A stretch of DNA of 64,000 bases from Candidatus Latescibacterota bacterium (lineage in GTDB: Bacteria > Latescibacterota > UBA2968 > UBA8231), in the NCBI GenBank assembly GCA_965223905.1, contig CBDCXV010000011.1, positions 288,001 through 352,000 of the forward strand. The letters run 5' to 3'. Each line of letters starts with the position of its first letter. Position 1 is the first letter of the stretch. Position numbers and translations under genes: made by a program. The notes under the pieces are model-generated. The model saw only the letters and a list, made by a program, of their open reading frames with translations, was not told the DNA's origin and searched no databases. This document shows, piece after piece, positions 37,384 to 64,000 of the stretch.

Positions 37384-38421
37384 TTGAAGAGCCGGCACCC
37401 CAGCTCCTACCCCGCCGCGGCGGCCATCGATCTTGGAACCAATACCATCCTGATGGTTGCGGGCCGGAGGAGGTCGCCACGCCCTGGAGACATCGAGATC
37501 CTCGACGACGCTCACGCCATCGCGCGGCTCGGACAAGGGGTCGATGCAGAGCGGAGAATTCAACCCGAAGCGATCGATCGCGTCTGCGGTTGCCTTCTGC
37601 GCTACCGTGACAGGGCGGCCGGCCTCGGCGCGAGCTTGATACGGGCCTACGGGACCTCGGCGCTGCGCGATGCCTCCAACAAGAGGGAGCTCATCGCCGC
37701 AGTGGTCGAGAGAACCGGGATCGAAATCGTCGAGCTCTCCGGGGAGGAGGAAGCCCGCCTGACCTTCACGGGGGCGGCGTTCGGACTGGGTCTTCCGGAG
37801 CGCTACGGAGTCGTCGATATCGGCGGAGGTTCCACCGAACTAGCGCTCGGCAAGGGTGACGGCACGGTGGAACAATCGATCTCCGTCGATGTGGGCGCTG
37901 TCCGCGTCAGCGAGCGGTTCTTTCCCTCCCTCCCTCCCTCGCCGGGGCAGGTCGGGAAAGCGGCGGCGATGATAGCCAGTGTGATGGCGGGTCTCTTCGA
38001 GGTCCCCTCGGGGATTACGGTTCTCGGGGTGGCCGGAACCGTTACGACACTCGGGGCGCTCGACCGGGAGACCGAACGCTTCGACTCCGCGGAACTCGAC
38101 GGCCATGTCCTCGCCCGCAAACGCGTGGTGGAGCTGAGCGACATGCTTCTCGGGTTGGGCCTCGAAGAAATACAGGCCTTTCCTCAGGTGAGCGACCAGC
38201 GGGCCGACATAATCACCGCGGGCTCGCTCATCCTGCGCCGCTTCCTGGAACAGTTCGACCTGCCCTCGGTCATCGTGTCGACCAAGGGGATTCGCTACGG
38301 ACTGTTGCAGCAGATGCTTGCCGGAGAAAGCAGAGGGCGGAAGTCGCCTCGAGACGTTTCGGGAGGAGGCCGTTCTGACGATCCTCCCGGGTGGGATCAC
38401 CTGGACAGGCTGGGCCGTTGA
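37384..38421 (+). CDS. Ppx/GppA exopolyphosphatase
   Basis: IDLGTN, TSALRDASN, GEEEA, DIGGGSTE and GIRYG. Confidence 0.93.
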   Translation: MKSRHPSSYPAAAAIDLGTNTILMVAGRRRSPRPGDIEILDDAHAIARLGQGVDAERRIQPEAIDRVCGCLLRYRDRAAGLGASLIRAYGTSALRDASNKRELIAAVVERTGIEIVELSGEEEARLTFTGAAFGLGLPERYGVVDIGGGSTELALGKGDGTVEQSISVDVGAVRVSERFFPSLPPSPGQVGKAAAMIASVMAGLFEVPSGITVLGVAGTVTTLGALDRETERFDSAELDGHVLARKRVVELSDMLLGLGLEEIQAFPQVSDQRADIITAGSLILRRFLEQFDLPSVIVSTKGIRYGLLQQMLAGESRGRKSPRDVSGGGRSDDPPGWDHLDRLGR

Positions 38422-39659
38422 TCCATATCCGACATCCCGGGGGGATCAGGGCTTCCCCCCGACTCGGATGCCACGCTGTCCGCTTCTACACCCCACCGGT
38501 ACGGACGGCCCTTCCAGTCGAAGCGGCCAAGCGCCCCGAACAGGCCGATGGCGACGATGTAGAGCGGATGACTCAGGGTCCAGGGCAGAAACTGCCAGTG
38601 GAGATCCCGGCGCTGGAATACCTGCCTGGACCGCGCGAACAGCGCTCCCTCAGCGGCGCTCTTCAAGAGCCAGGCAGCCGCGACGGAGAACCAGCTGACG
38701 GTCCCCCACCAGGCGAGGACGGGTGTCGCCAGGAGCATCGCACTCATGGCAAAGGTGCAGGCCAGGTAGGAAAAGAAGGGCGGGTCGAGCAAGGCTTGGC
38801 AGGAAGCGTTCGAAGCCCAGCGGCAGCGCTTGGCGAGAAGCCCCGACAGGGACGGGGAGGGCGGGTGAACCACGTGCCCGTCGGCATCTCCCGCAAACAG
38901 GATACGCCACCGTCGCGTGCGCCGGATGAGCTGCATCAGGAGGACGTCGTCGCCCGAACCCCGGTGCATGATGCGGCCGTATCCGCCGACCTCATCGTAC
39001 GCCGCCTTGCGAAAGCCGAGACTCTGCCCCGACGCTGCCAGCGCCCGCCCGCGACCGGCGCCGGCCGCGGCCGCGGCCATCAGGTTGAGGTAATCGACCG
39101 CCTCCCAACCTCCCAGAGCTCCCAACCGGCCGGTGTCCCGGCGTATCCCGGAGTAGCCGATGACCATTCCGACAGTGTCGTCGTCGAAGCGGACCGCCAT
39201 GGAAGCCGCCCAAGTGGGAGGCAGGCGGCAGTCGGCGTCGGTGGTCAGGACAACATCCCCTCCCGCCTTCTCGACGCCGAGCGACAGGGCCCTCTTCTTC
39301 GATCCGACCCGCCCCGGAAACCCGGACGTCCCGAGAATGGTCAGGCGAAGGTCGCGACCGCGGGCGAACTCCCTGGCGAGCTTCGCGGTGCGGTCGGTCG
39401 AGCCGTCGTCGACGAGGATCACCTCGTATTTCTCCGATGGCAGGGTCTGACGGTCCAGCCCCCGCAGGCAGGCGACGATGTTGTCCTCCTCGTTGCGGGC
39501 CGCGATCACAATCGAGATTTCCCGCCGGGGGTGGGTGGGCTTTTTCCGGATTCGATTGACATCCTCGCGGGAGGCGAGTCCCTGCCGGAACCAGATGACG
39601 GCGGCGGCGTAGACGGCAGTGAGCCCTGCCAGCGCGACCTCGATGCCAGACGCGTCCAC
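38397..39659 (-). CDS. GT2 glycosyltransferase (membrane)
   Basis: IAARNEE, DDGSTD, TDADC, SGDD and RCRWA. Start approximate. Confidence 0.9.
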   Translation of the reverse strand: MDASGIEVALAGLTAVYAAAVIWFRQGLASREDVNRIRKKPTHPRREISIVIAARNEEDNIVACLRGLDRQTLPSEKYEVILVDDGSTDRTAKLAREFARGRDLRLTILGTSGFPGRVGSKKRALSLGVEKAGGDVVLTTDADCRLPPTWAASMAVRFDDDTVGMVIGYSGIRRDTGRLGALGGWEAVDYLNLMAAAAAGAGRGRALAASGQSLGFRKAAYDEVGGYGRIMHRGSGDDVLLMQLIRRTRRWRILFAGDADGHVVHPPSPSLSGLLAKRCRWASNASCQALLDPPFFSYLACTFAMSAMLLATPVLAWWGTVSWFSVAAAWLLKSAAEGALFARSRQVFQRRDLHWQFLPWTLSHPLYIVAIGLFGALGRFDWKGRPYRWGVEADSVASESGGSPDPPGMSDMDQRPSLSR

Positions 39660-39673
39660 CGCCTGCAGCCGGG

Positions 39674-40747
39674 CTAACCGCGCAGCTCTTTGACGAGCGA
39701 GAACATGCCGCGGTACCCCTCGGAGCAGTTGCGGCACATGTCGACCGACTTGCGATCAGCCAGGATTTTTCGCCGGAAGTCCATGTACGCCCGTCCGCGC
39801 CAGATGCCGCGGAAGTCCTGGCGGGGATCGAAGCTGTCCCCCATGCCGAAGTCTACGTCCTTGTCGAAGCAGCAGGGAGCCACGGCCCCGTTCCAATTCA
39901 CCATAGAGGAATACCACAGCACCTTGCATCCCTTGCTGGGCTGACCTTTGACGAGCAACTCCCCCGAGGGGGAATCCTCATAGCGCCGATAGTCGCCGTC
40001 TTCGGGCAGAAACTCTTCCACTTCGTCCGGAGAGTACACCTGCGCGGTCTTGACGAGGAACTTCTCCGCGCCCAGTTCCCCTGCCAGTCGCTCCGCCTCG
40101 GCGATGTCCCCCTCGTTGTGGCGAAATACGATGAACTGCAGGTTGACGAGGGGGGTTCTGGAGCCGAGCTCCGATTTGGCCTGGGCCAACAGGCGGGCGC
40201 CGCGAATGACGTAGTCGAAACGCCCCCCGACGCGGTAGCGCTCGTACGTCTCCTGGTCGACTCCGTCGAGCGAAACGATGATTTCGTCGAGTCCGGAAGC
40301 GATGATCGCCCGGGCCTGCTCAATGTTGCGTATGTAATGGCCGTTGGTGCTTGTCATCGTCGGGATCCGTCTGTCCCGGGCGTAGCGAACCATGTCGACG
40401 AAACCCTTGTTGATGAACGGCTCCCCCTGGTTCCACAACATCAGAAGGACCAAGTGCTCACCGACCTCGTCGATGAGCCTCTTGAAGTCGTCGAGGTTCA
40501 TGTGGCCGCGGGCCCGTTTCATCTCCCCGTTGCCCGAAGGACACAAAGGGCACTTCAGATTGCAGAAGTTCGTCGGCTCGATCATCATCATGAACGGCCG
40601 GCCCCAGACGATGGGACGACCCGTGGCCGACGAGAGTCCCATCGAGGCGAGCACCTTGCCCGCGTTCCACAGTCGTTTCCAGGTAAAGGCGTACCCGTAG
40701 CGTTCGATGTACCTGGGAATCGCCTTGGGGGACAGCAGAAAGGCCAA
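39674..40747 (-). CDS. Radical SAM/SPASM domain protein
   Basis: CNLKCPLC, GEP, and C-terminal C...PCCFD...CRNC. Start approximate. Confidence 0.9.
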   Translation of the reverse strand: MAFLLSPKAIPRYIERYGYAFTWKRLWNAGKVLASMGLSSATGRPIVWGRPFMMMIEPTNFCNLKCPLCPSGNGEMKRARGHMNLDDFKRLIDEVGEHLVLLMLWNQGEPFINKGFVDMVRYARDRRIPTMTSTNGHYIRNIEQARAIIASGLDEIIVSLDGVDQETYERYRVGGRFDYVIRGARLLAQAKSELGSRTPLVNLQFIVFRHNEGDIAEAERLAGELGAEKFLVKTAQVYSPDEVEEFLPEDGDYRRYEDSPSGELLVKGQPSKGCKVLWYSSMVNWNGAVAPCCFDKDVDFGMGDSFDPRQDFRGIWRGRAYMDFRRKILADRKSVDMCRNCSEGYRGMFSLVKELRG

Positions 40748-40803
40748 TGGAATCTGTTTCCGGTGTCGGTGGTTGGCCGCGCGGGCCGATCGGCAGTGAC
40801 GCC

Positions 40804-41946
40804 CTATGGCGCCGGGAATTCCTCTTCCTCCTCCCCCTCCTCGCGCCAGCGGAACCAGCCCGCGGTGCCGGCGGGCACGAACAGCAGGACGTACGGAATA
40901 TAGAGAAATTCGAGAATCGGCAAAAAAAGGATCAGCCTGCGGTCTTCGGCTGTCGGGGCAAAGCTCCGCAGCAGGAGGAAATCGATCAGCCAGCGACCTC
41001 CCCAGACTGCGGGAAAAGCGGGCGGCACCTTTTCGAACAGGAAGGTCTGAACTACCCCCCACAGCAGGGTCAGGTGAAAGAGGTAGACGGCCGCGCCCAG
41101 CACCTTCGCCGCCCCTCGATAGTGCCCAGCCTTGGAGGCGTGGCGCAGTTTCTGGTGCATGAGCCCCGACCAGGATTCAGGTCCGGGATCACATGAAACC
41201 ACCGCCTCCGGATCGCGGCAGAAAACGAATCGCCAGTCAGTGGCCTCGGCTACCAGCCGGGCAAAGTAGACGTCGTCGCCGGCGACGAGATGGCCGATCG
41301 AAGCGTACCCTCCGACCTCCTCGTACACGCGCCGCCTGTAGGCGAGGTTTCTACCCGTGCAGGAGAGCACGGCCCCCCTCCCGATGCTGCCGGCCGCCAG
41401 GGCGCTGACGGCGAGGTTGTCCAGGGCCAGTACCCGATGCCGCAGCCACCTCGTCCTGCGCGGCCTCGCGCACCCTGCGACCAGCCCGACCCCGTCGGCG
41501 AACATCGAGGCCGTTATGCGCACCCATCCCGGTGACGGCTCGCAGTCCGCGTCGGTGAACAGCAGCAGCTCGCCGGAGCTGGCGGCGATCCCCCGTGCCA
41601 GGGCGCTCTTCTTCGGGCACTCGAACTCCCCATCCCCCTGGCGCAGCGACACCGGCTTGAGAGCGGGCCACTTCCCGGCGATTTCCCGGAGAATTTCCGC
41701 GGTTCGGTCACTGGAGCGGTCGTCGACCACCACGACTTCGAGCCTGCCCGCATAGTCCTGGAGTTGAAGCGACCGCAGGCAGGTGGAGATCGAGGCCTCC
41801 TCGTTGCGCGCCGCGATAATAACGCTGACGTCGGGGGTCGTCCCGGAGGACGCCGGGGGCACTCGCCGGAGCCCCAGCAACAGCCATCCGACGGCAGCGG
41901 CGTACGTGCATCCGAGGAGGATCATCGCCGCCTGAAGCTCAAGCAT
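40804..41946 (-). CDS. GT2 glycosyltransferase (membrane), paralog of 38397-39659
   Basis: IAARNEE, DDRSSD, FTDADC, AGDD and QKLRHASK. Confidence 0.9.
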   Translation of the reverse strand: MLELQAAMILLGCTYAAAVGWLLLGLRRVPPASSGTTPDVSVIIAARNEEASISTCLRSLQLQDYAGRLEVVVVDDRSSDRTAEILREIAGKWPALKPVSLRQGDGEFECPKKSALARGIAASSGELLLFTDADCEPSPGWVRITASMFADGVGLVAGCARPRRTRWLRHRVLALDNLAVSALAAGSIGRGAVLSCTGRNLAYRRRVYEEVGGYASIGHLVAGDDVYFARLVAEATDWRFVFCRDPEAVVSCDPGPESWSGLMHQKLRHASKAGHYRGAAKVLGAAVYLFHLTLLWGVVQTFLFEKVPPAFPAVWGGRWLIDFLLLRSFAPTAEDRRLILFLPILEFLYIPYVLLFVPAGTAGWFRWREEGEEEEEFPAP

Positions 41947-43942: not shown

Positions 43943-45240
<1,298 letters not shown>

Positions 45241-49477: not shown

Positions 49478-49558
49478 GTTTCCGCCAGAGTGATTTATGA
49501 AGCAGGCGCCGCGAATCGAGGGCGGCACAAGCCATACAGACAACCACAGGAGCCATTC

Positions 49559-50068
49559 ATGCACCTCAAGCATATGCGTCCCAACCAGCTAAGCGACATG
49601 GTCGCCGGGGGGAACCCTCTCCTGGTCCCGGCCGGCTGCATCGAGACCCACGGCCCGCACATGGCGATTGGCCACGACACCCTCATCGTCGAGGAAATCT
49701 GCGACCGCGTCGCCGCGCGCACCCCCTGCGCAATTGCCCCCTCCTTCGACTACGGCCCCACCGGCTACGCTCTTGGCGGCCCCGGGGACGGCACCATCGA
49801 TCCGGACTACGACTCGTTTGGCCGCTATGTCAAGAGCATCCTCCGCAACTTCGTCGAGATGGGCTTTCGCAAGACCTACGTAATCGTCATGCACCAGGGG
49901 ATGGGCGGCCCCCTGGCCCTGTCTTTCAGCAAAGCCTCCGCTCACGCCCCCTGGTACTGCCTTCAGGACGAAGAGAAAAACAGCCGCACGGCCAACGCCC
50001 GACACGGCCGGGAGATGTTGAACGCCGTGGTCCACACCTGGGTCGCCAAAATCGATCGGGAGCGCTGA
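49559..50068 (+). pseudogene. Creatininase family protein, probably internally deleted
   Basis: PAGCIETHGPH..GHD and MHQG are present, the later HA..E motif region is absent, and the product is about 170 aa. Confidence 0.65.
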
Positions 50069-51970: not shown

Positions 51971-52549
51971 ATGCGGATAAGGATGGCAGTAGCTCTGATC
52001 CTGGCGCTGCTGGGCTTTGCCGGGCTGGGCTGGGCGGAAACTTGGATGGGGCTTGAGATTGCCCCGGAGGATCGGTGCTCCCCATACGACCGGGACAAAG
52101 ATTACCCTTACTCACAGTCCTTGGAGCCTCAGATCCTGGAGCGAATGGGCGGGGAGATCCGATGCCGATATACCGACCAAGTCTACGACAGCTTGAAAGA
52201 GACTGACATCGAGCACGTGGTCGCAGTTAGCGAAGCCCACGACTCCGGTCTCTGTGCCGCCGACGCGGAGACCAAGAGGACATTCAGCAGCGACCTGGAC
52301 AACCTCACCCTGGCCGATCCGGACGTGAACCGCTACGAGAAGGCCGGCAAGGATGCTGCGGAATGGCTACCGGAGCTCAACCTGCTTTGGTACGTGGAGA
52401 CCATCATCAAGGTGAAGAAGAAGTACAGTCTTACGGTGGACCGGGCAGAAATGGAGGCGCTCAAGGGAGTGCTGGAGGATGTGGAGACGGCCATCCGAGC
52501 ATGTTCCTTTGGGGCCGTGAAGGACGAACACTTGAAGGAAACCCGATGA
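51971..52549 (+). CDS. Secreted DUF1524/HNH-like endonuclease
   Basis: Signal peptide, [20 protein letters not shown]...N..K..D.AEWLP and KKKYSLTVD..E..AL. Confidence 0.8.
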   Translation: MRIRMAVALILALLGFAGLGWAETWMGLEIAPEDRCSPYDRDKDYPYSQSLEPQILERMGGEIRCRYTDQVYDSLKETDIEHVVAVSEAHDSGLCAADAETKRTFSSDLDNLTLADPDVNRYEKAGKDAAEWLPELNLLWYVETIIKVKKKYSLTVDRAEMEALKGVLEDVETAIRACSFGAVKDEHLKETR

Positions 52550-53499: not shown

Positions 53500-54041
53500 C
53501 GGTGCCCTGAGTGGCGAAGATCGGGGCAAGCCGTCGACCTTCTTGTAGGTCCAGGGGGTGATCGGCGGCGCGTGACGGGCCACCATGTCGGCCGACTCCT
53601 CTCCAATCGCGGCTTCCACTGTCCGGACAAGGCATCGAGCCGCTGCCGCAGGATGGCCGCGGACGGCACCGCATCCAGGCCCAGCGCCTGGCAGAAAAAG
53701 GGGTCGGTACGAAATCCTTCCACGGCCTCGAAATCCGGCTTGCCCAGCGCCAGCAAACCGATCATCGACGCCATCACGTCGCCGTGAGAAACCTCGGGCT
53801 GAGGACGCTCCGCCAAGGTGATCTCATCCACCCGCGCGGCTAGGCGCGTGCACCCCATCAAGGCCCCGATCAAGGCCAAAACCCGAATGCGAGGTCAGCG
53901 CTTCTTCGCCCTGCGTAATGTGAAACGAAACCGGTCTCAAGAATTCACCTCCAGGGTGAGTCCAAATCCTCCTCTACTATATACCCTGGATTCCCCTCCG
54001 AAAACAACCGAAAATCTGGCTCTTGACTTCACGGATTCAGG
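53500..54041 (-). mobile_element. IS1380-family transposase 5' fragment
   Basis: LALIGAL...GLLALGKPDFEAV...DPFFCQALGL..VPS...LRQRLD; element end CCTGAATCC at 54041; no partner end found. Confidence 0.75.
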
Positions 54042-54317
54042 ATGAATACGATTTGGATGAGGTCCTTGGGGATGAACTAACAGGATGGATGATGGATATT
54101 TATCCCGGATCCGAGGTTAATCCCCATATACTTCCGGAGCCAGGTACGCAAGAAACGCTATGGAAAAGCCGATGCCCGAGGACAGATTGAAACCGAGTCA
54201 GCATCGACCAGCGCCCGGCCATCGTCGAGTGCGGTTTCGGGTGCTCTCGCCGTGGTCGGCCGGGAAACCGCGATGTCAGCCGGCAAGGTTCCCTAACATG
54301 ACGATGGGGAAAATAAA

Positions 54318-55013
54318 GTGACGCGCGACACTCCGAACCGTGGAGCCGCGGACTGCGGCTTGGTGGCTCGTCTGTCCGAAGACGCGCTCAAGGTGCAACG
54401 CTATTTTCCGACGCTCATTTTTTCTCTGGAAGTTCCGGGCAGCGAGATTCTGAACGCCCACCTGATCGAGGCGATCTACGCCGAACGAGAACGCGACAGA
54501 ACAGGGGTGCGCAAGTCGAACTTCCCGGAGCTGGGGAGTTGGCACAGCCACGTCAAGCTGCACAAGGACGTCACGTTTGCGGGATTGGTTGAATACGTCG
54601 ACGCGGCCTCGGCCATGATGTGCCGTGAGCTCGGATATCACAGGTCCTATCAACTGAGAATCGGCACCATGTGGTCGATCATCAATCCACCGGGTGGCGT
54701 GAACCGGGCTCATATCCATCCCGGCTGCATCTGGAGCGGCGTCTACTACGTCCAGGCACCCAGGAATTCGGGTGGAATCGAGTTCATCGATCCGCGCACC
54801 CAGAACCTGATGAGTCCCGTCGAATACATCCCCGACACCAAGCGCCCACGAATCTGCTGGACGAAGGTCCAATACAAACCCGTGGCCGGAAAAATGCTGG
54901 TCTTCCCGAGTTGGCTGTACCATAGCGTGGGTCCGAATCGATCCAGGGCCAAGGGGAAGGACGCCGATCGGATCATCGTGAGCTTCAACCTGTCTCAGGA
55001 AAGGCGCAGATAG
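54318..55013 (+). CDS. 2OG-Fe(II) oxygenase, TIGR02466 family
   Basis: WSIIN, HIHPG..WSGVYYV, F.DPR, FPSWLYHSV and RIIVSFN. Confidence 0.88.
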   Translation: MTRDTPNRGAADCGLVARLSEDALKVQRYFPTLIFSLEVPGSEILNAHLIEAIYAERERDRTGVRKSNFPELGSWHSHVKLHKDVTFAGLVEYVDAASAMMCRELGYHRSYQLRIGTMWSIINPPGGVNRAHIHPGCIWSGVYYVQAPRNSGGIEFIDPRTQNLMSPVEYIPDTKRPRICWTKVQYKPVAGKMLVFPSWLYHSVGPNRSRAKGKDADRIIVSFNLSQERRR

Positions 55014-55155
55014 TCACGCACGGAAGCTGCGGTAAGGCGCCGGTACGTCGCTGCTATGGGATTTCGTAAACGGCTTCTATTATTGCGGGTTGTAGCACCA
55101 TCATAATCATATATTTTCTCTCGGAGTTGTCCTTCTTCCCCAAGAGGAGCCAGAA

Positions 55156-56376
55156 ATGAGACACCTAAGGCGATTTATTTCCCTCGTGAGCATAATGATC
55201 TTGATGACTTTGGGTCGGCCTTCCTCTCTTTTCGGGCAGAGTGTAAAAGACACGCCGTTGGGTGACCAGATCTCGCCCCTCCTTAGAAGCGAAGCTTCAG
55301 CATCAGTAGCTTCCAGTGACGACGACGACGACGAAGGCGACGAAGGCGACGAGGACGACGAGGACGACGAGGACGATGATGATGATGACGACGAGGACGA
55401 GGACGAGGGCGATGAGGGCGATGAGAACGACGGCGACGAGGGCGATGAGAACGACGAGGGCGATGAGGGCGACGAAAACGACGAGGGCGATGAGGGCGAT
55501 GAGGACGACGGCGACGAGGGCGACGAGAACGACGAGGGCGATGAGGGTGACGAGGACGACGGCGACGAGGGCGATGAGGGCGACGAAAACGACGAGGGCG
55601 ATGAGGGCGATGAGGACGACGGCGACGAGGGCGACGAGGGGGATGAGGGCGACGAGAACGACGAAGGGGATGAGGGCGACGAGGGGGATGAAGGCGACGA
55701 GGACGACGGCGACGAGGGGGATGAGGGCGATGAGGACGACGAGGGGGATGAGGGCGATGAGGACGATGAGGGCGATGAGGACGACGAGAACGACGGCGAC
55801 GAGGGCGACGAGGGCGATGAGGACGACGAGGGCGATGAGGACAACAACGGAAGCGGAGGGTCGTCAGAAGCAACCAGGACATTCGCGCCGCTTAGGGGGG
55901 ATTTCGATGACGATGGAAAAGTCAGTTTTTCCGACTTCTTCCTCCTTGCCGATGCTATGGGCAGCAGCGACCCAACCTTTGATCTCGATGGCAGCGGCCT
56001 AGTTGATTTCTCGGACTTCTTTCTGTTTGCCGACTCTTTCCCACCGTCGGCGCGGGCCAAGTTGCTGGATCTTGCGCGGGATTTGATCGAGCTGCCCGTT
56101 GGCGCCCAGTTGCACCAGAACGCACCCAATCCCTTCAACAGCGAGACGGTTCTTTCCTTCATCCTCCGGGAACCGGGCCCGGCGCGCCTGGAGATCCTCA
56201 CGGTAACCGGGCAACGGGTGAAGGTCTTGAGCCATGGTGATCAGGAGGCGGGTTACCACCGGATCTCCTGGGACGGCTTGGATGACGCAGGCCAACCGTT
56301 GGCAAGCGGCGTCTACCTGTACAGACTGGCGACGACCGAAGGCGTATTGACCCGCAAGCTGGTTCTGCTGCGCTGA
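55156..56376 (+). CDS. Secreted Asp/Glu-rich repeat protein with dockerin-like EF-hand pair and FlgD-Ig-like C-terminal domain
   Basis: GAGGAG RBS, signal peptide, D/E/G/N tract, GDFDDDGKVSFSDFF...DLDGSGLVDFSDFF, and QNAPNPFN...WDG...SGVYLYRL...RKLVLLR. Confidence 0.88.
   Translation: MRHLRRFISLVSIMILMTLGRPSSLFGQSVKDTPLGDQISPLLRSEASASVASSDDDDDEGDEGDEDDEDDEDDDDDDDEDEDEGDEGDENDGDEGDENDEGDEGDENDEGDEGDEDDGDEGDENDEGDEGDEDDGDEGDEGDENDEGDEGDEDDGDEGDEGDEGDENDEGDEGDEGDEGDEDDGDEGDEGDEDDEGDEGDEDDEGDEDDENDGDEGDEGDEDDEGDEDNNGSGGSSEATRTFAPLRGDFDDDGKVSFSDFFLLADAMGSSDPTFDLDGSGLVDFSDFFLFADSFPPSARAKLLDLARDLIELPVGAQLHQNAPNPFNSETVLSFILREPGPARLEILTVTGQRVKVLSHGDQEAGYHRISWDGLDDAGQPLASGVYLYRLATTEGVLTRKLVLLR
55318..55842 (+). 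repeat. Coding low-complexity repeat (GAY GAG GGC-type 9-mers) encoding DEG/DEN/DED/DG units
   Basis: 525 bp, 175 codons encoding only D, E, G and N. Confidence 0.95.
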
Positions 56377-56392
56377 CCGGGCCGATCCCCGA

Positions 56393-57805
56393 ATGGCTTC
56401 GACCCCAAGAAGCCGCACGGAAATCGCCAGGGAGGTATTGACACGACAGGTCGATCCCGCCCCTGTCGTGTTCTTCAGAGTCCTCTTCGGCACGCTCATG
56501 GCCGTGGAGGTCATTCGATACTGGGTCCACGGCCGCATAGCGCGTTACTACATCGAGCCGACGTTCCTCTTTTCTTTCGTGGAATGGATCGAACCCGTCG
56601 GCGCAGGGATGTATCCGGTTTTCCTCCTCATGGGAGCTGCCGCGCTTTTCCTGGCGATAGGATTCCACTACCGGGCGGCGTCGATCCTGTACTTCGTTCT
56701 CTACACCTATGCGTTCCTTCTCGACAAGGCGCAGTACAACAATCACTACTACCTGATCTGTCTGCTGGCCTTTCTTTTCGCGGTGACGAATGCGGACCGG
56801 GGATTTTCAATCGACGCCGTGCGGCGCAGGCTTCCCTCCCAGGTTCCCGCCTGGCAGGTTTACCTGTTTCGCCTGCAAGTCTGCATCGTTTTTTTTCTAT
56901 GCCGGGGTGGCAAAGATCAACTCCGACTGGCTGTCGGGTGAACCGGTCAGAACGTGGCTGGCCGCAAGGTCGGACTATTTCCTGATTGGACCTCTCCTGT
57001 TGAAGGAGTGGTTCGTTTTTTTGTACGCCTACGCCGGGCTGTTGTTCGATCTGGGGATAGGGTTTGCGCTGCTATGGTCCCGGACCCGGGGGGCCGGCTT
57101 CGTGCTGCTCCTCGGGTTCAATGTCCTCAACAAGTGGTTCTACGACATCGGGATCTTCCCGTATCTGGCGATGGCGACGTTCGTCCTCTTCATGGACGGT
57201 ACCAGTATCAGGGGCCTGTTCAGTCGCTGGGTTCGCACGCGAGCCGTTGGCGGTGCTGTGGTGCGCGATCTGCTGGGGGAGCGGGTGGAAACGGGAGCAA
57301 ATCCCCGCAAACCAAAACCCTGGACGGAACTGCTCTCCAGGTTGGGCCCGGTCGGAATCGGAGCCAAGGCGGTTCTGATTTCCGGGTTCGTTTTCGTGCA
57401 GCTCCTTGCCCCGCTTCGCCATTTCGCCATTCCAGGCCATGTGGCCTGGACCGAAGAGGGCCATTTGTTTTCGTGGAGGATGAAGCTGCGGGACAAGCGC
57501 TCAGATGAGATTGTCTTCTATACCAGAGACCCGCAGAGTGGAGGAGTTATCGATTTACCGACGGATAAGCTGACCAAAGGCAGAAAAGAAAGATGTCCAC
57601 GCGGCCCCATATGATTGTTCAATACGCCAGACACCTTTCCGAGGGTCTCGGGAAAAGTGGCTTCGAGAACGCGCCCGTGTACGTCAGAACCTCGGTGTCC
57701 CTGAACAGCCGCGATCCCAAACCGCTGATCGACGAGAGAGCCGACCTTGCAAACGTGCAATTCCGGTCCTTTGTGCATAACGGCTGGATAACCACCCTCG
57801 AATAG
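56393..57805 (+). CDS. HTTM-domain protein, homolog of vitamin-K-dependent gamma-glutamyl carboxylase (two single-base frameshifts)
   Basis: DPAPVVFFRVLFG, LDKAQYNNHYYL, YAGVAKINSDWL, IGIFPY, WTEEGHLFSWRMKL, RPHMIVQYA and VSLNSR..PLID. Frameshifts at the T8 run 56889-56896 and the AAA at about 57576. Confidence 0.88.
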
Positions 57806-57945
57806 TTGCCGCGGCGAGGGGTTCAGTCCGAATCGGATTACCTGTGGGATACTGGACCTGCACGTCGAGGCGCGGCTTGAGGCTTACGGGACACCCCTTG
57901 GAAACCGGCTCCTGCCATCTTTGGTAACGCCCGGCCTTTTCGGTC

Positions 57946-58422
57946 TCAAATCGAAGCCTTCGGGGACACGCGGATGCCGGAGGCCACCATTTCGAATTTT
58001 AGGACCTCCGCAAGCCCGGGCGGCTGCGCGGAGGATTCCGCCTGATAGTGCTCCTCCGCGCCCTGGTCAGCCACCTGCAACAAGCCATGGACAGTGGCCA
58101 AACGCCCGCTGATCTCTTGCGGCACTGTATAGGCGTAACTCCCATCCTCATGGCGCGCTACGTGCACGCGCAATCCCGCTGCGGTATCCAAGGCGCGCAA
58201 CACGAGCCAGCAGCCGGCTTTTTGGCATACCTCATGGACGGTACCCGTAACGGTAACCGGCTGGTCCAGATACCTTTCGGGCTCAGCCAGGACAGCCTCT
58301 ACGGGCAAGGCTTCCTGCGGCATGTCGGCTGCGCCGAAGAGATCATCCTCCGATGTGTCCAGCCGTGCGCAAGCCGCGCAAACCAACAGGAGCACGAGGC
58401 TCGCCCAACGCATGGTTTGCAT
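57946..58422 (-). CDS. DUF4920-like OB-fold lipoprotein
   Basis: Lipobox-like VCAAC and V.G.V.EVCQKAGCW motif. Confidence 0.7.
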   Translation of the reverse strand: MQTMRWASLVLLLVCAACARLDTSEDDLFGAADMPQEALPVEAVLAEPERYLDQPVTVTGTVHEVCQKAGCWLVLRALDTAAGLRVHVARHEDGSYAYTVPQEISGRLATVHGLLQVADQGAEEHYQAESSAQPPGLAEVLKFEMVASGIRVSPKASI

Positions 58423-58545
58423 TGTGGCAGCGTGTTTCATATCAAAGCTGTCAAACATCCAAGGAACAAGTGGCGTCGAATGGCGTCGAAATTTGCGATC
58501 CACTATCTGGTCAAAGCGTACAGGAGATCCAACGCCAAGTTCTCA

Positions 58546-58833
58546 GTGATTCCTATACACCTGCGGAGGTTCGTGATTTCTTGGCATTCTGAAAAGGAAA
58601 ACTTTCCCTCTTGCCCCCTGCCAATCGACGCTCAGACCAATCAGCATCCCAAGCGGTCCCGGGGCCGCCCTGTCGAGTATCCGATGCCCGAGGCCATAGA
58701 CGACACCCCGGAGAACGTCGCCAAGGCCATTATGCGGAAACCGCCGAAGAAGGAATGGCGGTATCTGAAGGAATCAGGGCGCAAGCGGTAGCCCACGGCA
58801 GCCTCGCGGTGGGAAAGTTTGTATATGGTTCCC
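58546..58833 (+). mobile_element. Possible IS1595-derived remnant carrying a small basic ORF end
   Basis: Weak IRs GTGATTCCTATACA / TGTATATGGTTCCC; ORF end RGRPVEYPMPEAIDDTPENVAKAIMRKPPKKEWRYLK; no target duplication seen. Confidence 0.35.
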
Positions 58834-59219: not shown

Positions 59220-59633
59220 TCAGGCACGGTGGCGGTTCTTTTGTCCCCCTTCCCCAGCGGGCCGTCGTTCGTCCTGCCGTTTCCCCCTCTCCCTGGATAG
59301 CCTCCAGCGCGGTATTCCACGCAAAGACGCCATGATCTGCTGCTGCAGACGCTGGTGGTGCGGTTTGCCCACGGCCAGCTCTGCCAGCCTGATCCAGGGA
59401 GCGCGCTCCAGCACGTGGCTTTCGGCCCTCTCCAGATGTGTTCTCACCGCCTCCTCGGTTAAGTCGAGAAAGCGCGCGATCTCCTTGCACGAACTCCCCT
59501 CGATATGGAAGAGCACCAAGATCAGGCGGCTTTGCCGGGGAATCTCGTCCAGGAGTTTCCAGAGTTTCCCCGGAACCTCGACCCATTTCTCGGGATACTG
59601 ATCCTCCGACCTCAGCGCCCTCTTTGATAACAT
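59220..59633 (-). CDS. Sigma-70 region 4 (ECF-type) HTH protein or fragment
   Basis: LDEIPRQSRLILVLFHIEGSSCKEIARFLDLTEEAVRTHLERA; no region 2 present. Confidence 0.6.
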   Translation of the reverse strand: MLSKRALRSEDQYPEKWVEVPGKLWKLLDEIPRQSRLILVLFHIEGSSCKEIARFLDLTEEAVRTHLERAESHVLERAPWIRLAELAVGKPHHQRLQQQIMASLRGIPRWRLSRERGKRQDERRPAGEGGQKNRHRA

Positions 59634-59721
59634 TGGCTCGTCCCTTGCAAGGCTGTTCTTTTTTCGGTTTCACCTTTCTGACGGAAATGGAAAGCGAAGT
59701 ACTAGGTGATTGTGGAGAACG

Positions 59722-60052
59722 ATGAAAACCTCCCTGTCGGCATTATGGGTTTCCAACGTGGCCCTGATCTTTTGGGTTCTCGCCTCTCCGCTGTTCTCCG
59801 AGATCTGGATGGGCCTGGAAGTCGAGCCCGAAAACCGGTGTTCCCCCTACAACCGTGATCGGGACTACCGTTATTCTCAATCTCTGGAGCCGGCCATAGC
59901 CGCCCGAATGGGAGGCATCCGATGCCGGTACACCGGCAAGACCTACCGAAGCCTCCGGCAGACCGACATCGAGCACGTGGTCGCTGTGAGCGAGGCGCAT
60001 GACTCCGGTCTGTGCGCAGCGGATGCGGCCACCAAACGCAGATTCGCCAGCC
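59722..60052 (+). pseudogene. Truncated paralog of the DUF1524 nuclease at 51971
   Basis: [15 protein letters not shown]...[29 protein letters not shown], after which similarity stops. Confidence 0.85.
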
Positions 60053-60172
60053 GTCGAGCTCAGCCCGCTGAATCTTGTCGGTTCCCCAATCGGTCCAGTA
60101 GATCTTGCCGCCCGCGACATCGATGGCCAGGCCGTAGGGCTCGTTGAGCCCGGAAGTGACCAGGTCTTCCAC
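60050..60172 (-). pseudogene. Single LDL-receptor YWTD repeat fragment
   Basis: [41 protein letters not shown]. Confidence 0.8.
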
Positions 60173-60889: not shown

Positions 60890-61651
60890 TCAGGCCGTAG
60901 CAGCCCTATTGAGACCGACCAGAACTTCCTGATCGAGCCCGTGGCGGGTTATCTCAAGAGCCTTGCAGCCTTCCAGCTCCCTCACTGGAGGTGGTGCAAT
61001 CTCGAACGGGAAGAGATGAGGGCCTCGCAGCGCGCCAGACGGTGAGAGGGGTTTTTCGCCCTTGGCAGCGAGAACGGCCTTTACGGCCCAGATGATGAGG
61101 GGCATGTCATTGATAACCCGTTTGGAAGGTCCGCGATAAATCCCTTTGTCGACGGTCTCGACGAGTACTTCCCAGTCAACTAACGCCCGTACGATGCGCC
61201 TTGCAGCTCTCGATACGGTTTCGCGTTCACCCAGCTGTTCACGGACCCTGCGCTGCACTTGAGCCGCCGCAGCCGTCCCCTGCAAGTGAAGAAGTCGCCC
61301 GGTTGCTTCCGCAACGGTGCCGAAGAACGGGTAGACCGCCATGCACATACACCAATGCACTAACATTCGGTCACCCGCGGGTGGGCGTTGAAGGAGTTCG
61401 AGTCCTTCATCCCGGAGCCCTTGAAATTCGCTTGGAACCGTCACCCAAACCTTCGTCAGAATCGTGATGGCCTTTTCGCGGTTCCCTCGTTCCGAGTCGC
61501 TCCCCACCGACAGTCGGTCCCGCAGCCGTTCCCTCAGAGCAGCAACGATGTCGTCTCTCGAATTTCCAGCCAATGCGAGGTTCCCGGTGTACTCCAACCA
61601 ATCCAGTCGGATGCGCTGGCTGAAACCGATCATCTGTTCCTTGCGTTTCAT
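60890..61651 (-). CDS. BREX type 3 BrxA-like protein
   Basis: IGFSQRIRLDWLE...REKAITIL.KVW...YPFF...GERETVSRAARR; ATGA overlap with the pglZ end. Confidence 0.7.
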   Translation of the reverse strand: MKRKEQMIGFSQRIRLDWLEYTGNLALAGNSRDDIVAALRERLRDRLSVGSDSERGNREKAITILTKVWVTVPSEFQGLRDEGLELLQRPPAGDRMLVHWCMCMAVYPFFGTVAEATGRLLHLQGTAAAAQVQRRVREQLGERETVSRAARRIVRALVDWEVLVETVDKGIYRGPSKRVINDMPLIIWAVKAVLAAKGEKPLSPSGALRGPHLFPFEIAPPPVRELEGCKALEITRHGLDQEVLVGLNRAATA

Positions 61652-62920
61652 TTGGCCAGCCGTTCGATCTGAACCATTGGGACGACGACTTCCTCGATGG
61701 AAATGCCGCCATGCCCTACTGTGCGTTCGCCTTCGCGAACGAAAGCTGATCGACCCGGTGCCAGCAGTGCCCAATAGTCCTCAGGAAGCCCAAGCGCAGG
61801 CCACTCGAGCGCGTGTGAGAATCGTTCCTTTACGCGAGATCGCAAGAGCTGGTCCGGGTAGACCCGTGCGCGTTTTCCTTGAAGATCGGCGACCGCACCC
61901 TCCGATGGCCGACCACGGCCTTCCGCCTCGATGTTTCCGTGGTCTGAGGTAAGGGCCACATCGAAGCCGTGATCAAATAGAACATCGAATAAACCTGCCA
62001 TGAATTGTTGATTCGCCCATTGATTAACTTGGTTGTGCATTCCCGCTGTGCCGAGCTCCCCCTCGGCGTCAATTGCCCGGCGCTTCTCGTTCCGGATGAC
62101 AAAGGGCTGGACCCGCTCGCGGGTGACAGACCCGACATCGGGAAAGGCGTCTTCGTCAAGGAAAGAAACCAGCCTGTGAAAGGCTTCGGTCTTGCCTTGG
62201 TGCGGCGTTGCCGAAAGCAGCAGCAGGTATGGCGCCGCCCCGGCGAGACCCTTGCCCAACTTGTACCTGGCGACCTGATCCGTACTGCCGGCGAGGCGGT
62301 GCGCCTCATCCACGATCACCAAGTCCCAGCCGGCGGCGATCAGGTCCTCGAACCGTTCCCGATTGTATTCGTCCAACCTCTGCCGTGACCAACCGCGACG
62401 GCCTTCCAAGGGCTTCACAGAGTCAAGCGGCGTCACTACTTGATCATAGACGCGCCAGATGTTGTCTTCCCTGGCGATCCGGCGATAGGCGGAAAAATCG
62501 CTCGGGACGAGCAGCCGAAACTCCTCGCCGAAGTGGGTCTGCATCTCTGCCACCCACTGCGTCACAAGTCCTTTCGGCGCGATTACCAGGGTGCGCCGCA
62601 CGAGACCGCGGAGCTTCAGCTCGCGCATGACGAGGCCCGCTTCGATGGTCTTGCCGAGCCCCACCTCGTCGGCCAACAGGTAGCGGACGCGGTCGTGCTC
62701 GATCGCATGACCGAGCGCCCTGATCTGATGGGGTAACGGGATGACGGATGCCTCGATCGGCGCCAGAAGCATGTCTTGGGACAAAGCGTCCGCCACCCTG
62801 CCCGCGGCAGCCACGTAGGAAACGGCCTCAGGCCCTTGGACGAGGGATTCGTCGGGCCGCTTCAGTTGCTCAGCGCGGACCCGGACGACGGCATCCTGGG
62901 CGGGAAGCCATACGCGACAC
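61648..62920 (-). pseudogene. In-frame chimera of a BrxHII-like SNF2 helicase N-half and a PglZ C-terminus
   Basis: PLPHQ, LLADEVGLGKTIEAG, DEAH and LSATPHQG; after about 62058, ELGTAGMHNQV, LTSDHGN and HGGISIEEVVVP. Confidence 0.8.
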
Positions 62921-63200
62921 GATGATCGGCTGGCCCCGGAACAGAAATACGAGTTCGACCTGCGGGATACATCGTCCTGAAGGGCCACTACGACGAGGAG
63001 GCAGTGGCGGAGTTCCACGCCGGCATGGGCGTGAGCTTCAGGCGATCCCCATAGACTACGCGACCTACACCCGGCTCGGGGTCGCCACTATTTCCTGGCT
63101 CCGCCGATGTCCGACCCCTGAGCACCCGTTCTGGAAGGGGGAGCATCGGCCCGACCAGAGCCCCAACCCGGAGACCGGCGGCATCGGTCGGGTCGACCCC
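62921..63200 (+). pseudogene. N-terminal fragment of a phytanoyl-CoA dioxygenase-like gene
   Basis: Read across frameshifts: WPPEQKYEFDLR(G)YIVLKGHYDEEAVAEFHAG... Confidence 0.4.
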
Positions 63201-63590: not shown

Positions 63591-64000
63591 CGGAACGTGT
63601 CATGGGAATGAGACACTTCGCGAAAAAGTTTACTGTCCTATTCGTGCGCATTCGATGGTGGTCGGAGGTGGGTTGATCCACACTTCGGCCGGTATTTTCG
63701 GCGCCTTAGGAGGACCCTTTACAAAGCGCTCGGGATGTCGTGTGTAGGCATCCTCGAGGATGCGTTGCCGCGCTGACTGGAGCTCCTCGGCGCGCCCCTG
63801 ATGTACTGCCTCCGGGGTCAGCAGGCCCAGTCCACTATGACGATGCTGGGTGTTGTACCACAGAAAGAACGAACGCAAATAGGTCCGCGCCTGCTCCGGG
63901 TCGGCAAAGCGGCCCGGGTACGTCGGTGCGTATTTCACCGTCTTGAACTGGCTTTCCGAATAGGGGTTGTCGTCGGCGGTTCGCGGGCGGCTGTAGCTGG
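63591..64000 (-). mobile_element. IS3-family element, 3' part (runs off the window end)
   Basis: SRPRTADDNPYSESQFKTVKY...WYNTQHRHSGLGLLTP...VWINPP, stop at 63630; terminal-like GTGTCTCATTCCCATGACACGTTCCG. Confidence 0.88.

Follow-up and report, generated by a model that had tools for sequence, protein, structure and literature searches.

The three genes of the cassette

We analysed a stretch of 64,000 nucleotides (the window) of a Candidatus Latescibacterota genome, G000 in our survey. It carries a cassette of three genes in a row on the forward strand, which code for an oxygenase dependent on 2-oxoglutarate (2OG) and Fe(II), for an exported protein with a long polyacidic tract, and for a membrane protein of the HTTM family that resembles the vitamin-K-dependent gamma-carboxylases (VKGC; GGCX in vertebrates). 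An original prediction, made from the sequence alone, had read the last two genes as an enzyme and its substrate, with the glutamates of the tract converted to gamma-carboxyglutamate (Gla), and had made the HTTM protein the main partner of the tract. The latter view is not supported, since the upstream oxygenase gene, which was absent from that prediction, tracks the tract far better (14 of 14 cases). The reading that we favour, with about an even chance of being right, is that of a module made up of a 2OG oxygenase and a polyanionic protein, to which a carboxylase-like HTTM gene, inactivated here, is accessory. The features are the following (aa, amino acids; T9SS, type IX secretion system).

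54318-55013, +, TIGR02466-family 2OG-Fe(II) oxygenase, 231 aa (TIGR02466 194.5 bits, cut-off 62.5; PF13759, E = 1.9e-22)
55156-56376, +, open reading frame (ORF) of the acidic protein, 406 aa
55156-55236, +, signal peptide of the acidic protein (aa 1-27), basic/hydrophobic N-terminus; type and cleavage site judged by eye
55237-55317, +, conserved mature N-terminal leader, 27 aa (aa 28-54; alignment A2)
55318-55842, +, polyacidic tract, 175 aa (aa 55-229), mostly (G-D-E)n, from composition and repeat analysis
55897-56040, +, two DxDxDG-type loops, dockerin- or EF-hand-like by eye
56125-56364, +, T9SS type A C-terminal sorting domain / FlgD_ig (TIGR04183, aa 324-403; PF13860, aa 343-394)
56393-56893, +, frame 2, HTTM gene piece A (aa 1-167 of about 470; PF05090, E = 1.2e-44), with the N-N-H motif equivalent to human N158-N159-H160
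56889-56896, +, frameshift 1, a run of eight T with one surplus T compared with intact orthologs, just before the codon of the K218-equivalent Lys
56895-57590 (end approximate), +, frame 0, HTTM gene piece B (PF05090, E = 2.4e-27; PF22777, E = 1.5e-15)
57576-57578, +, frameshift 2, a run of three A, one A short compared with intact orthologs
57593-57805, +, frame 2, HTTM gene piece C, the end of the VKGC lumenal domain, roughly human PBD-1 (PF22777, E = 6.5e-16)

The oxygenase gene is present as a single copy in the genome. Its product belongs to the TIGR02466/PF13759 family, as the family cut-off is exceeded and the AlphaFold2 model (pLDDT 78.9) has the double-stranded beta-helix fold. The nearest solved folds are 3bvc and 2rg4, two uncharacterised structural-genomics proteins, followed at a TM score of about 0.5 by PolD, by bacterial, viral, algal and HIF prolyl-4-hydroxylases and by other 2OG dioxygenases acting on proteins or small molecules. 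The modelled fold is, as weak evidence, compatible with a protein hydroxylase. All 26 aligned homologs share residues H132, H134, H202 and R218; from the general pattern of 2OG oxygenases we take them to be the metal triad and the 2OG-binding Arg. The close orthologs number about 100 proteins at 73-94% identity. Close homologs (73-85% identical) are named from metagenome-assembled genomes (MAGs) of Gemmatimonadota, Deltaproteobacteria, Acidobacteriota, Gammaproteobacteria and Rhodospirillaceae. In the literature found, the TIGR02466 family is mentioned only in virus genome studies and in a plant survey of 2OG dioxygenases.

The acidic protein is built as the original prediction described it, that is, as a signal-peptide protein with a tract of 175 D, E, G and N residues in which Glu stands mostly at every third position. 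The tract contains 79 D, 52 E, 37 G and 7 N and is devoid of Pro, and the spacing between successive Glu residues is three in 42 of the 51 intervals. At the DNA level it has a 9-nt period with 59.9 copies and 74% matches over 55320-55840 (Tandem Repeats Finder). Across the complete orthologous genes its length ranges from 88 to 389 aa, in frame every time, and such a tract would be prone to slippage. The first 100 aa of the protein are 64-78% identical to 13 orthologs, and the signal peptide is kept in 15 aligned orthologs. Seven consensus residues are missing from the window copy (all A2). The leader occurs once in the genome. In runs X3 and X6, which belong to two other studies, several distinct contigs match the signal peptide and leader (55152-55293) with 1-10 differing letters over 48-124 nt, which indicates that those samples hold many related genes with leader and tract. 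In run X3, the tract is covered at very high word depth.

At its C-terminus the protein scores 32.5 bits with TIGR04183 (cut-off 23) and E = 1.5e-11 with FlgD_ig (PF13860), and a 2069-aa open frame elsewhere in the genome matches SprA_N (1.1e-27). With the sorting domain, the signal peptide (by eye) and the machinery represented by the SprA_N match, it has the attributes of a T9SS type A cargo. The Pfam scan of the protein gave FlgD_ig alone at E <= 0.01; at this threshold no family was assigned to the DxDxDG loops, and neither a Gla domain nor a GGCX propeptide was found. The C-terminal module (aa 230-406) is generic, with 135 tblastn matches in the genome, and appears to be a standard export and anchoring cassette of the organism. 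A 158-aa version of it (DxDxDG pair, linker and sorting domain) has about 17 copies with identities of 57-69%, some of them clustered, for example at C11:2092197-2106799 and C11:1321142-1362313 of G000. Most likely, the acidic protein is a secreted or surface-displayed cation-binding polymer.

The HTTM gene follows on the same strand after 16 nt, exactly as the original prediction had it: the acidic gene, stop codon included, extends to 56376, and an ATG follows at 56393. Together, the two HTTM-matching pieces cover positions 2-256 of the 259 of PF05090, and two pieces cover positions 6-74 and 81-149 of the 152 of PF22777 (VKGC lumenal). Intact orthologs have 470 aa and are 86-89% identical to the window gene; the ortholog P0001 aligns to residues 51-504 of human GGCX (phmmer, E = 2.5e-45). 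The three GGCX motifs that had been recognised in the protein could be confirmed by alignment and correspond to human N158-N159-H160, K218 and 393-404. Besides the equivalents of K218, D263 and N290, piece B comprises the Glu-binding linker and the beginning of the lumenal domain, and the A-G-V-A-K motif is encoded directly after frameshift 1. In 18 aligned homologs the equivalents of K218, D263, N290, N159, H160 and M401 are invariant (the first three are K174, D219 and N246 of P0001). A basic W-R-M-K-L-R-D-K segment is invariant as well, human R436 aligns to Lys or Arg in close orthologs, and P0001 keeps the 393-404 linker and PBD-1. For the roles of these residues in vitamin K deprotonation and in the Glu pocket we rely on two preprints (bioRxiv 10.1101/2025.02.09.637231 and 10.64898/2026.03.26.714578). 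Tyr stands in place of human W157, and Gly-His in place of L394-Y395, the His being invariant. PBD-2 (508-604) and everything C-terminal to it are absent, the alignment ending at human residue 504, and therefore a propeptide clamp of the human type is impossible in this form. The length of about 470 aa, the lack of the long C-terminal region and the two frameshifts, here found to be 1-nt indels at both sites, had all been seen correctly before.

The HTTM ortholog is single-copy in the genome. In addition, the genome has a paralog of about 30% identity (G000:C11:1721783-1723282), which is intact over its full length, contains both PF05090 and PF22777 and has no acidic neighbour. The genome contains two genes of the MqnA/MqnD family (futalosine pathway of menaquinone synthesis), and no match to MenA (TIGR00751) or to VKOR was found in it. 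Bacterial VKGC homologs are widespread, with 901 proteins at E <= 0.001 in one length-limited search.

The uninterrupted frame of the VKGC family is not seen in the window gene, which is broken by the two indels and is, in our judgement, very probably a real and recent pseudogene. It is quite improbable that the frameshifts are homopolymer errors of sequencing or assembly in a gene that is intact in the organism. Such errors would fit the facts that both lesions are single bases in A/T runs, that the assembly has few contigs (11), and that relatives from two other studies are intact at the first site and one of them at the second. The contig from one of these studies (X6, 4068 nt, about 92% identical, with 168 differing letters and 22 gaps over 55759-57817) has one T fewer at 56889 and an extra A behind 57575; as this restores the frame at both sites, that relative has an open frame. 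It carries the acidic gene upstream, too. The contig from the third study (X3) has one T fewer at 56891. On the other hand, independently built contigs of the two runs X1 and X2 of one sample repeat both indels, with 0 differences and 0 gaps from the window over 55609-57900 (2.3 kb), so that both indels are in those reads; this sample may be the source of the genome assembly itself, in which case the confirmation is not independent. Errors would also not explain that HTTM decay is common in relatives and takes different forms (G117 has lost an internal segment, and G049, G054 and G046 are heavily truncated), nor that neighbouring genes look truncated as well.

Compared with G104, a genome of the same genus, the HTTM pieces have a ratio of nonsynonymous to synonymous divergence (dN/dS) of 0.23 at dS 0.32; the downstream DUF4920 gene, being misaligned, was left out of the comparison. 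Purifying selection on the remainder of the gene would suit an error, too; we read it as selection that lasted until recently and hence the breaks as recent. Because frameshift 1 precedes the codon of the catalytic Lys, no product with an active site can come from this copy. We also considered whether the T run could be a conserved phase-variation switch and rejected this, since in G104, G118 and G143 the codons for the same residues form no long T run, and G117 was broken by a deletion of another kind. Judged from these sequences, the change is ordinary decay and not a designed switch.

Occurrence of the three genes in other genomes

We surveyed 168 genomes of the phylum of the window. The oxygenase is found in 15 of them, as 14 full-length copies and one fragment. 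All 14 full-length copies are adjoined by the acidic gene, about 30-145 nt downstream and with the same signal peptide and leader. The HTTM gene is much less constant beside these 14 pairs: it is intact in two (G104, and G118 across two contig ends), broken or a remnant in six (G000, G117, G049, G054, G046 and, with 28 aa left, G125), and was not found in the fetched flanks of the other six (G122, G128, G139, G144, G050, G057). A genome-wide search for PF05090 had no match in any of five pair-carrying genomes (G139, G144, G057, G378, G468), whereas the control genomes were matched; the completeness of G139, G144 and G057 is 93-98%. As far as can be told from the genes, the HTTM gene no longer functions in the window, most relatives can do without it, and the tract is kept even where no HTTM gene exists. 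Since the oxygenase always accompanies the acidic gene, while the HTTM gene is broken here and often lost in relatives, the former would be the likelier modifying partner.

An ortholog of the oxygenase (74-75% identity) also occurs in two of 401 Acidobacteriota genomes. Both copies adjoin a lipoprotein-type ORF that ends in a (D/E/G) tract of 114 or 120 aa. Here the two genes stand in the opposite order and the leader bears no relation to that of the window, so that the tract alone is shared, and the two genomes have no HTTM-domain match. It is thus the tract that travels with the oxygenase; leader, sorting domain and HTTM gene do not.

The Glu content of the tracts points in the same direction. 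Tracts linked to an oxygenase contain 14 to 114 E (complete genes). In G143, by contrast, where the one intact HTTM ortholog that has no oxygenase nearby is found, the adjoining tract has 157 aa with 131 D, 25 G, 1 N and 0 E, and in G010 an HTTM homolog (44% identity) is followed about 390 nt downstream by a (DDDDDG)n ORF, again with 0 E. Glu thus seems to follow the oxygenase and not the carboxylase homolog, the two Glu-free neighbours being single cases.

Seen from the side of the HTTM gene, 26 of the 168 genomes have a match to P0001. Those of at least 61% identity are in G104, G118, G123, G143, G117, G049, G046, G054 and the window, and an acidic-tract gene adjoins each. It lies 18-22 nt upstream of an intact HTTM gene in G104, G118, G123 and G143; in G049, G046 and G054 HTTM fragments alone remain after it; and in G117 a truncated HTTM gene is directly upstream of the pair of oxygenase and acidic gene. 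Strongly acidic frames are rare, with two stop-to-stop frames of at least 100 aa that have at least 36 D/E per 60-aa window in the 7.9-Mb genome. Because of this rarity, and because the same pair recurs in relatives, the adjacency is beyond chance. For the enzyme-substrate operon that had been proposed, the tight, co-oriented pair beside every close ortholog is favourable, and the broken gene in the window and the intact gene beside only 2 of 14 pairs are not.

The only other strongly acidic locus of the genome (G000:C10:424598-426503) consists of two adjacent, lipoprotein-like ORFs on the minus strand (443 and 139 aa) with repeats of the G-M-D-D-G-E-E-D type or a D/G-rich tail. ORF lists and searches gave no HTTM or TIGR02466 gene in its flanks.

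Scans for distant HTTM homologs covered 158 loci, 80 from genomes and 78 from metagenomes, and an ORF was called acidic if it had at least 22 D/E in 40 aa. The sole locus with more than 46% identity is L007, from a Candidatus Latescibacterota MAG (71%). Among the other 157, an acidic ORF is adjacent to the HTTM gene in two (L015, L118) and present in a non-adjacent position in three (L111, L157, L164). We were therefore not able to find the enrichment of acidic secreted neighbours that had been set beforehand as the test of the original prediction, and the pairing is conserved in close orthologs of the phylum alone. That HTTM genes might be linked more generally to Asp-rich neighbours (L015, L118, L055, G010) was rejected on the same ground, as two adjacent cases are not above three non-adjacent ones at a fixed threshold.

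The commonest conserved upstream neighbour at the distant loci is imelysin (PF09375), to which 22 of the 84 co-oriented ORFs with 140 aa or more belong. These loci are from Bacteroidota and Balneolales-type genomes (L056, L060, L062, L065, L068-L070, L074, L077, L079, L081, L082, L084, L146, L150, L154-L156, L159-L162) and mostly have downstream an ORF of about 825 aa, TonB-dependent-receptor-like judging from its N-terminus, in a conserved three-gene set. Their HTTM and VKGC_lumenal proteins are of the same family as ours and 34-40% identical, whereas their neighbours are imelysin lipoproteins and large proteins of outer-membrane type instead of acidic-tract proteins. In G143, a cluster of a di-haem oxidoreductase (PF06537), an imelysin (PF09375) and a porin-like gene (L197:8623-12441) is convergent to the intact HTTM gene, which ties the Latescibacterota gene to the same context as in Bacteroidota.

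Candidate modifications of the acidic tract

According to the reading we favour, the cassette would comprise a cytoplasmic TIGR02466-type oxygenase, an exported polyanionic protein and a membrane-bound VKGC-like HTTM protein. Judging from the linkage, the oxygenase would most likely hydroxylate the tract before Sec export. In relatives, the HTTM protein looks catalytically complete for the oxygenation of menaquinol and could further modify the exported chain in the periplasm; in the window it would have been inactivated by the two 1-nt homopolymer indels.

Several observations weigh against this reading, besides the possible dependence of the X1 and X2 contigs. The modification of the tract by the oxygenase is a proposal drawn from linkage. 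At a TM score of about 0.5 the modelled fold resembles prolyl hydroxylases only weakly, and there is no Pro in the tract to hydroxylate. No signal peptide can be recognised in the oxygenase, though the substrate proposed for it is an exported protein. Being related, the genomes are not independent of each other, and the support from another phylum consists of the two Acidobacteriota genomes; a search of 401 Myxococcota genomes gave no ortholog. In G143 the acidic gene and an intact HTTM gene occur with no oxygenase ortholog within 5.7 kb upstream. Finally, the HTTM gene may matter more than the word accessory implies, because every close ortholog or remnant found adjoins the acidic gene or the pair of oxygenase and acidic gene, as would be expected of a dedicated tailoring enzyme.

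In a rival reading, the HTTM protein would be a true menaquinol-dependent gamma-glutamyl carboxylase, which modifies the Glu residues of the tract as they enter the periplasm and which in the window has recently died or is served by the intact paralog on contig C11. We consider this unlikely, and gamma-carboxylation is unlikely to be the core function of the locus. Its appeal comes from the likeness to vertebrate GGCX and its Gla substrates. The HTTM core, the Glu-binding linker and PBD-1 align, the equivalents of K218, D263, N290, N159, H160 and M401 are kept, the invariant W-R-M-K-L-R-D-K segment is basic, and the lumenal domain would face the periplasm if the topology is that of GGCX. The candidate substrate is exported and rich in Glu, and its gene is separated by only 16-22 nt from the HTTM gene in the window, G104, G118, G123 and G143. 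Genes of the MqnA/MqnD family could provide the quinol. What had been said about Gla formation therefore stands as regards the vitamin K residues, part of the Glu pocket and the menaquinone genes. It is disfavoured by the five pair-carrying genomes without PF05090, by the repeated decay of the HTTM gene, by the tracts with 0 E that face the intact ortholog of G143 and the homolog of G010, and by the distant loci, which are not enriched in acidic neighbours. The differences from the vertebrate enzyme count as well: at about 470 aa the protein lacks PBD-2 (one jaw of the propeptide clamp) and the C-terminal arch, W157 has become Tyr and L394-Y395 Gly-His, the neighbouring protein has no Gla-domain match and no known propeptide, the gene is broken and the genome has no VKOR match. 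We also predicted a complex of the HTTM protein (alignment A1) with residues 28-100 of the acidic protein (A2); it gave no answer (score 0.01, mark 0.32) and speaks neither for nor against.

There is a reported precedent for a VKGC homolog that acts on vitamin K but not on Glu. The orthologue of Leptospira reportedly epoxidises vitamin K without carboxylating. Like the protein discussed here it is a short bacterial homologue with the catalytic Lys and without a known protein substrate, whereas in the present case one lineage has a candidate substrate gene right next to that of the homologue. Gamma-carboxylase-like epoxidase modules of giant viruses keep K218, too, and it is proposed that they oxygenate vitamin K for a purpose other than Gla (bioRxiv 10.64898/2026.03.26.714578). 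The viral proteins lack human residues 374-418, a segment kept here, and are linked to VKOR or a desaturase instead of a secreted acidic protein.

Alternatively, the HTTM protein might have nothing to do with the acidic protein and might be a menaquinol oxygenase or epoxidase of another envelope process, its adjacency being an inherited gene order that is eroding. This, too, we hold to be rather improbable. The imelysin neighbours at 22 of the 84 distant upstream positions, often followed by the ORF of about 825 aa, and the di-haem oxidoreductase-imelysin-porin cluster that the HTTM gene of G143 abuts are what one would expect. So are the histories of the genes, for which the identities of three window genes to those of five relatives are given here.

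Enolase (window 44047-45240): G104 88%, G118 70%, G143 69%, G049 68%, G054 68%
HTTM: G104 83%, G118 71%, G143 72%, G049 62%, G054 69% (short fragment)
2OG oxygenase: G104 90%, G118 93%, G143 none found, G049 83%, G054 86%

The HTTM identities track those of enolase and the oxygenase identities do not, so that the two ends of the cassette have different histories; dS against G104 is 0.095 for the oxygenase and 0.32 for the HTTM gene. It seems from this that the 5' module of oxygenase and leader has been exchanged among lineages, perhaps via recombination in the repeat. An unrelated HTTM protein is, however, difficult to reconcile with a gap of 16-22 nt that is kept across genera and two families, with the HTTM remnants that stay in the same position in G049, G054, G046 and G125, and with the finding that no close ortholog was found away from the acidic gene.

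The explanations are not all mutually exclusive. In relatives with three intact genes, such as G104, the oxygenase might hydroxylate a surface polyanion which the menaquinol-driven VKGC-like enzyme then carboxylates, on Glu or possibly on Asp; we see only a slim chance of this. Asp comes into question because two HTTM genes have Glu-free (DDDDDG)n neighbours. The Asp/Asn beta-hydroxylase is a 2OG-Fe(II) oxygenase that modifies acidic residues in the EGF domains of secreted calcium-binding, Gla-bearing vitamin-K-dependent proteins. The cassette has the same pair of enzyme classes, a 2OG oxygenase and a VKGC, which is an analogy and not an established homology; the oxygenase here is of the TIGR02466/PF13759 subfamily and appears to be cytoplasmic. 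If true, such a dual decoration would be a prokaryotic counterpart of the vertebrate maturation by Gla and beta-hydroxy-Asp, and would provide the first protein substrate of a bacterial VKGC homologue, for which none is reported in the literature searched. In our survey this lineage holds the only candidate substrate found in physical linkage to a bacterial VKGC-like gene, and relatives with an intact gene exist.

For the module of oxygenase and polyanionic protein, which we continue to favour, the link between TIGR02466 and (G-D-E)n tracts in two phyla offers a testable function for that oxygenase family. The locus would also hint at a new group of secreted polyanions that are modified and that may bind calcium, other metals or mineral.

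Surroundings of the cassette

The G+C content of the cassette region is 0.52-0.63 per 500 nt, compared with 0.64 genome-wide, and gene fragments are found around it. A scan of 53800-58700 for promoters and terminators gave sites no more numerous than in shuffled sequence. Directly downstream lies a convergent gene, which is also found there in G104 of the same genus and of which L195 has a copy with 88% identity:

57946-58503, -, DUF4920 gene (PF16267, E = 5.8e-09)

The cassette region is flanked on either side by a copy of a secreted GmrSD_C/DUF1524-like gene (51971-52549 and 59710-60147, the second truncated). There is a direct repeat of 135 nt with 74% identity, 7760 nt apart, and two further copies are on contig C9. 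Several ORFs nearby look truncated (49490-50068, 59220-59633, 61648-63018 and 63630-63938); the types are a creatininase (profile positions 2-127 of 238), a sigma-70 factor with region 4 alone, a 456-aa SNF2 fragment and an rve_3 integrase tail. Going by their sequences, this suggests local gene decay or the scar of a mobile element. Further upstream in the window, at 38397-41946 on the minus strand, a radical SAM/SPASM enzyme lies between two family-2 glycosyltransferases, beside a Wzi-like capsule assembly gene, and this may be a peptide- or sugar-modification cluster.

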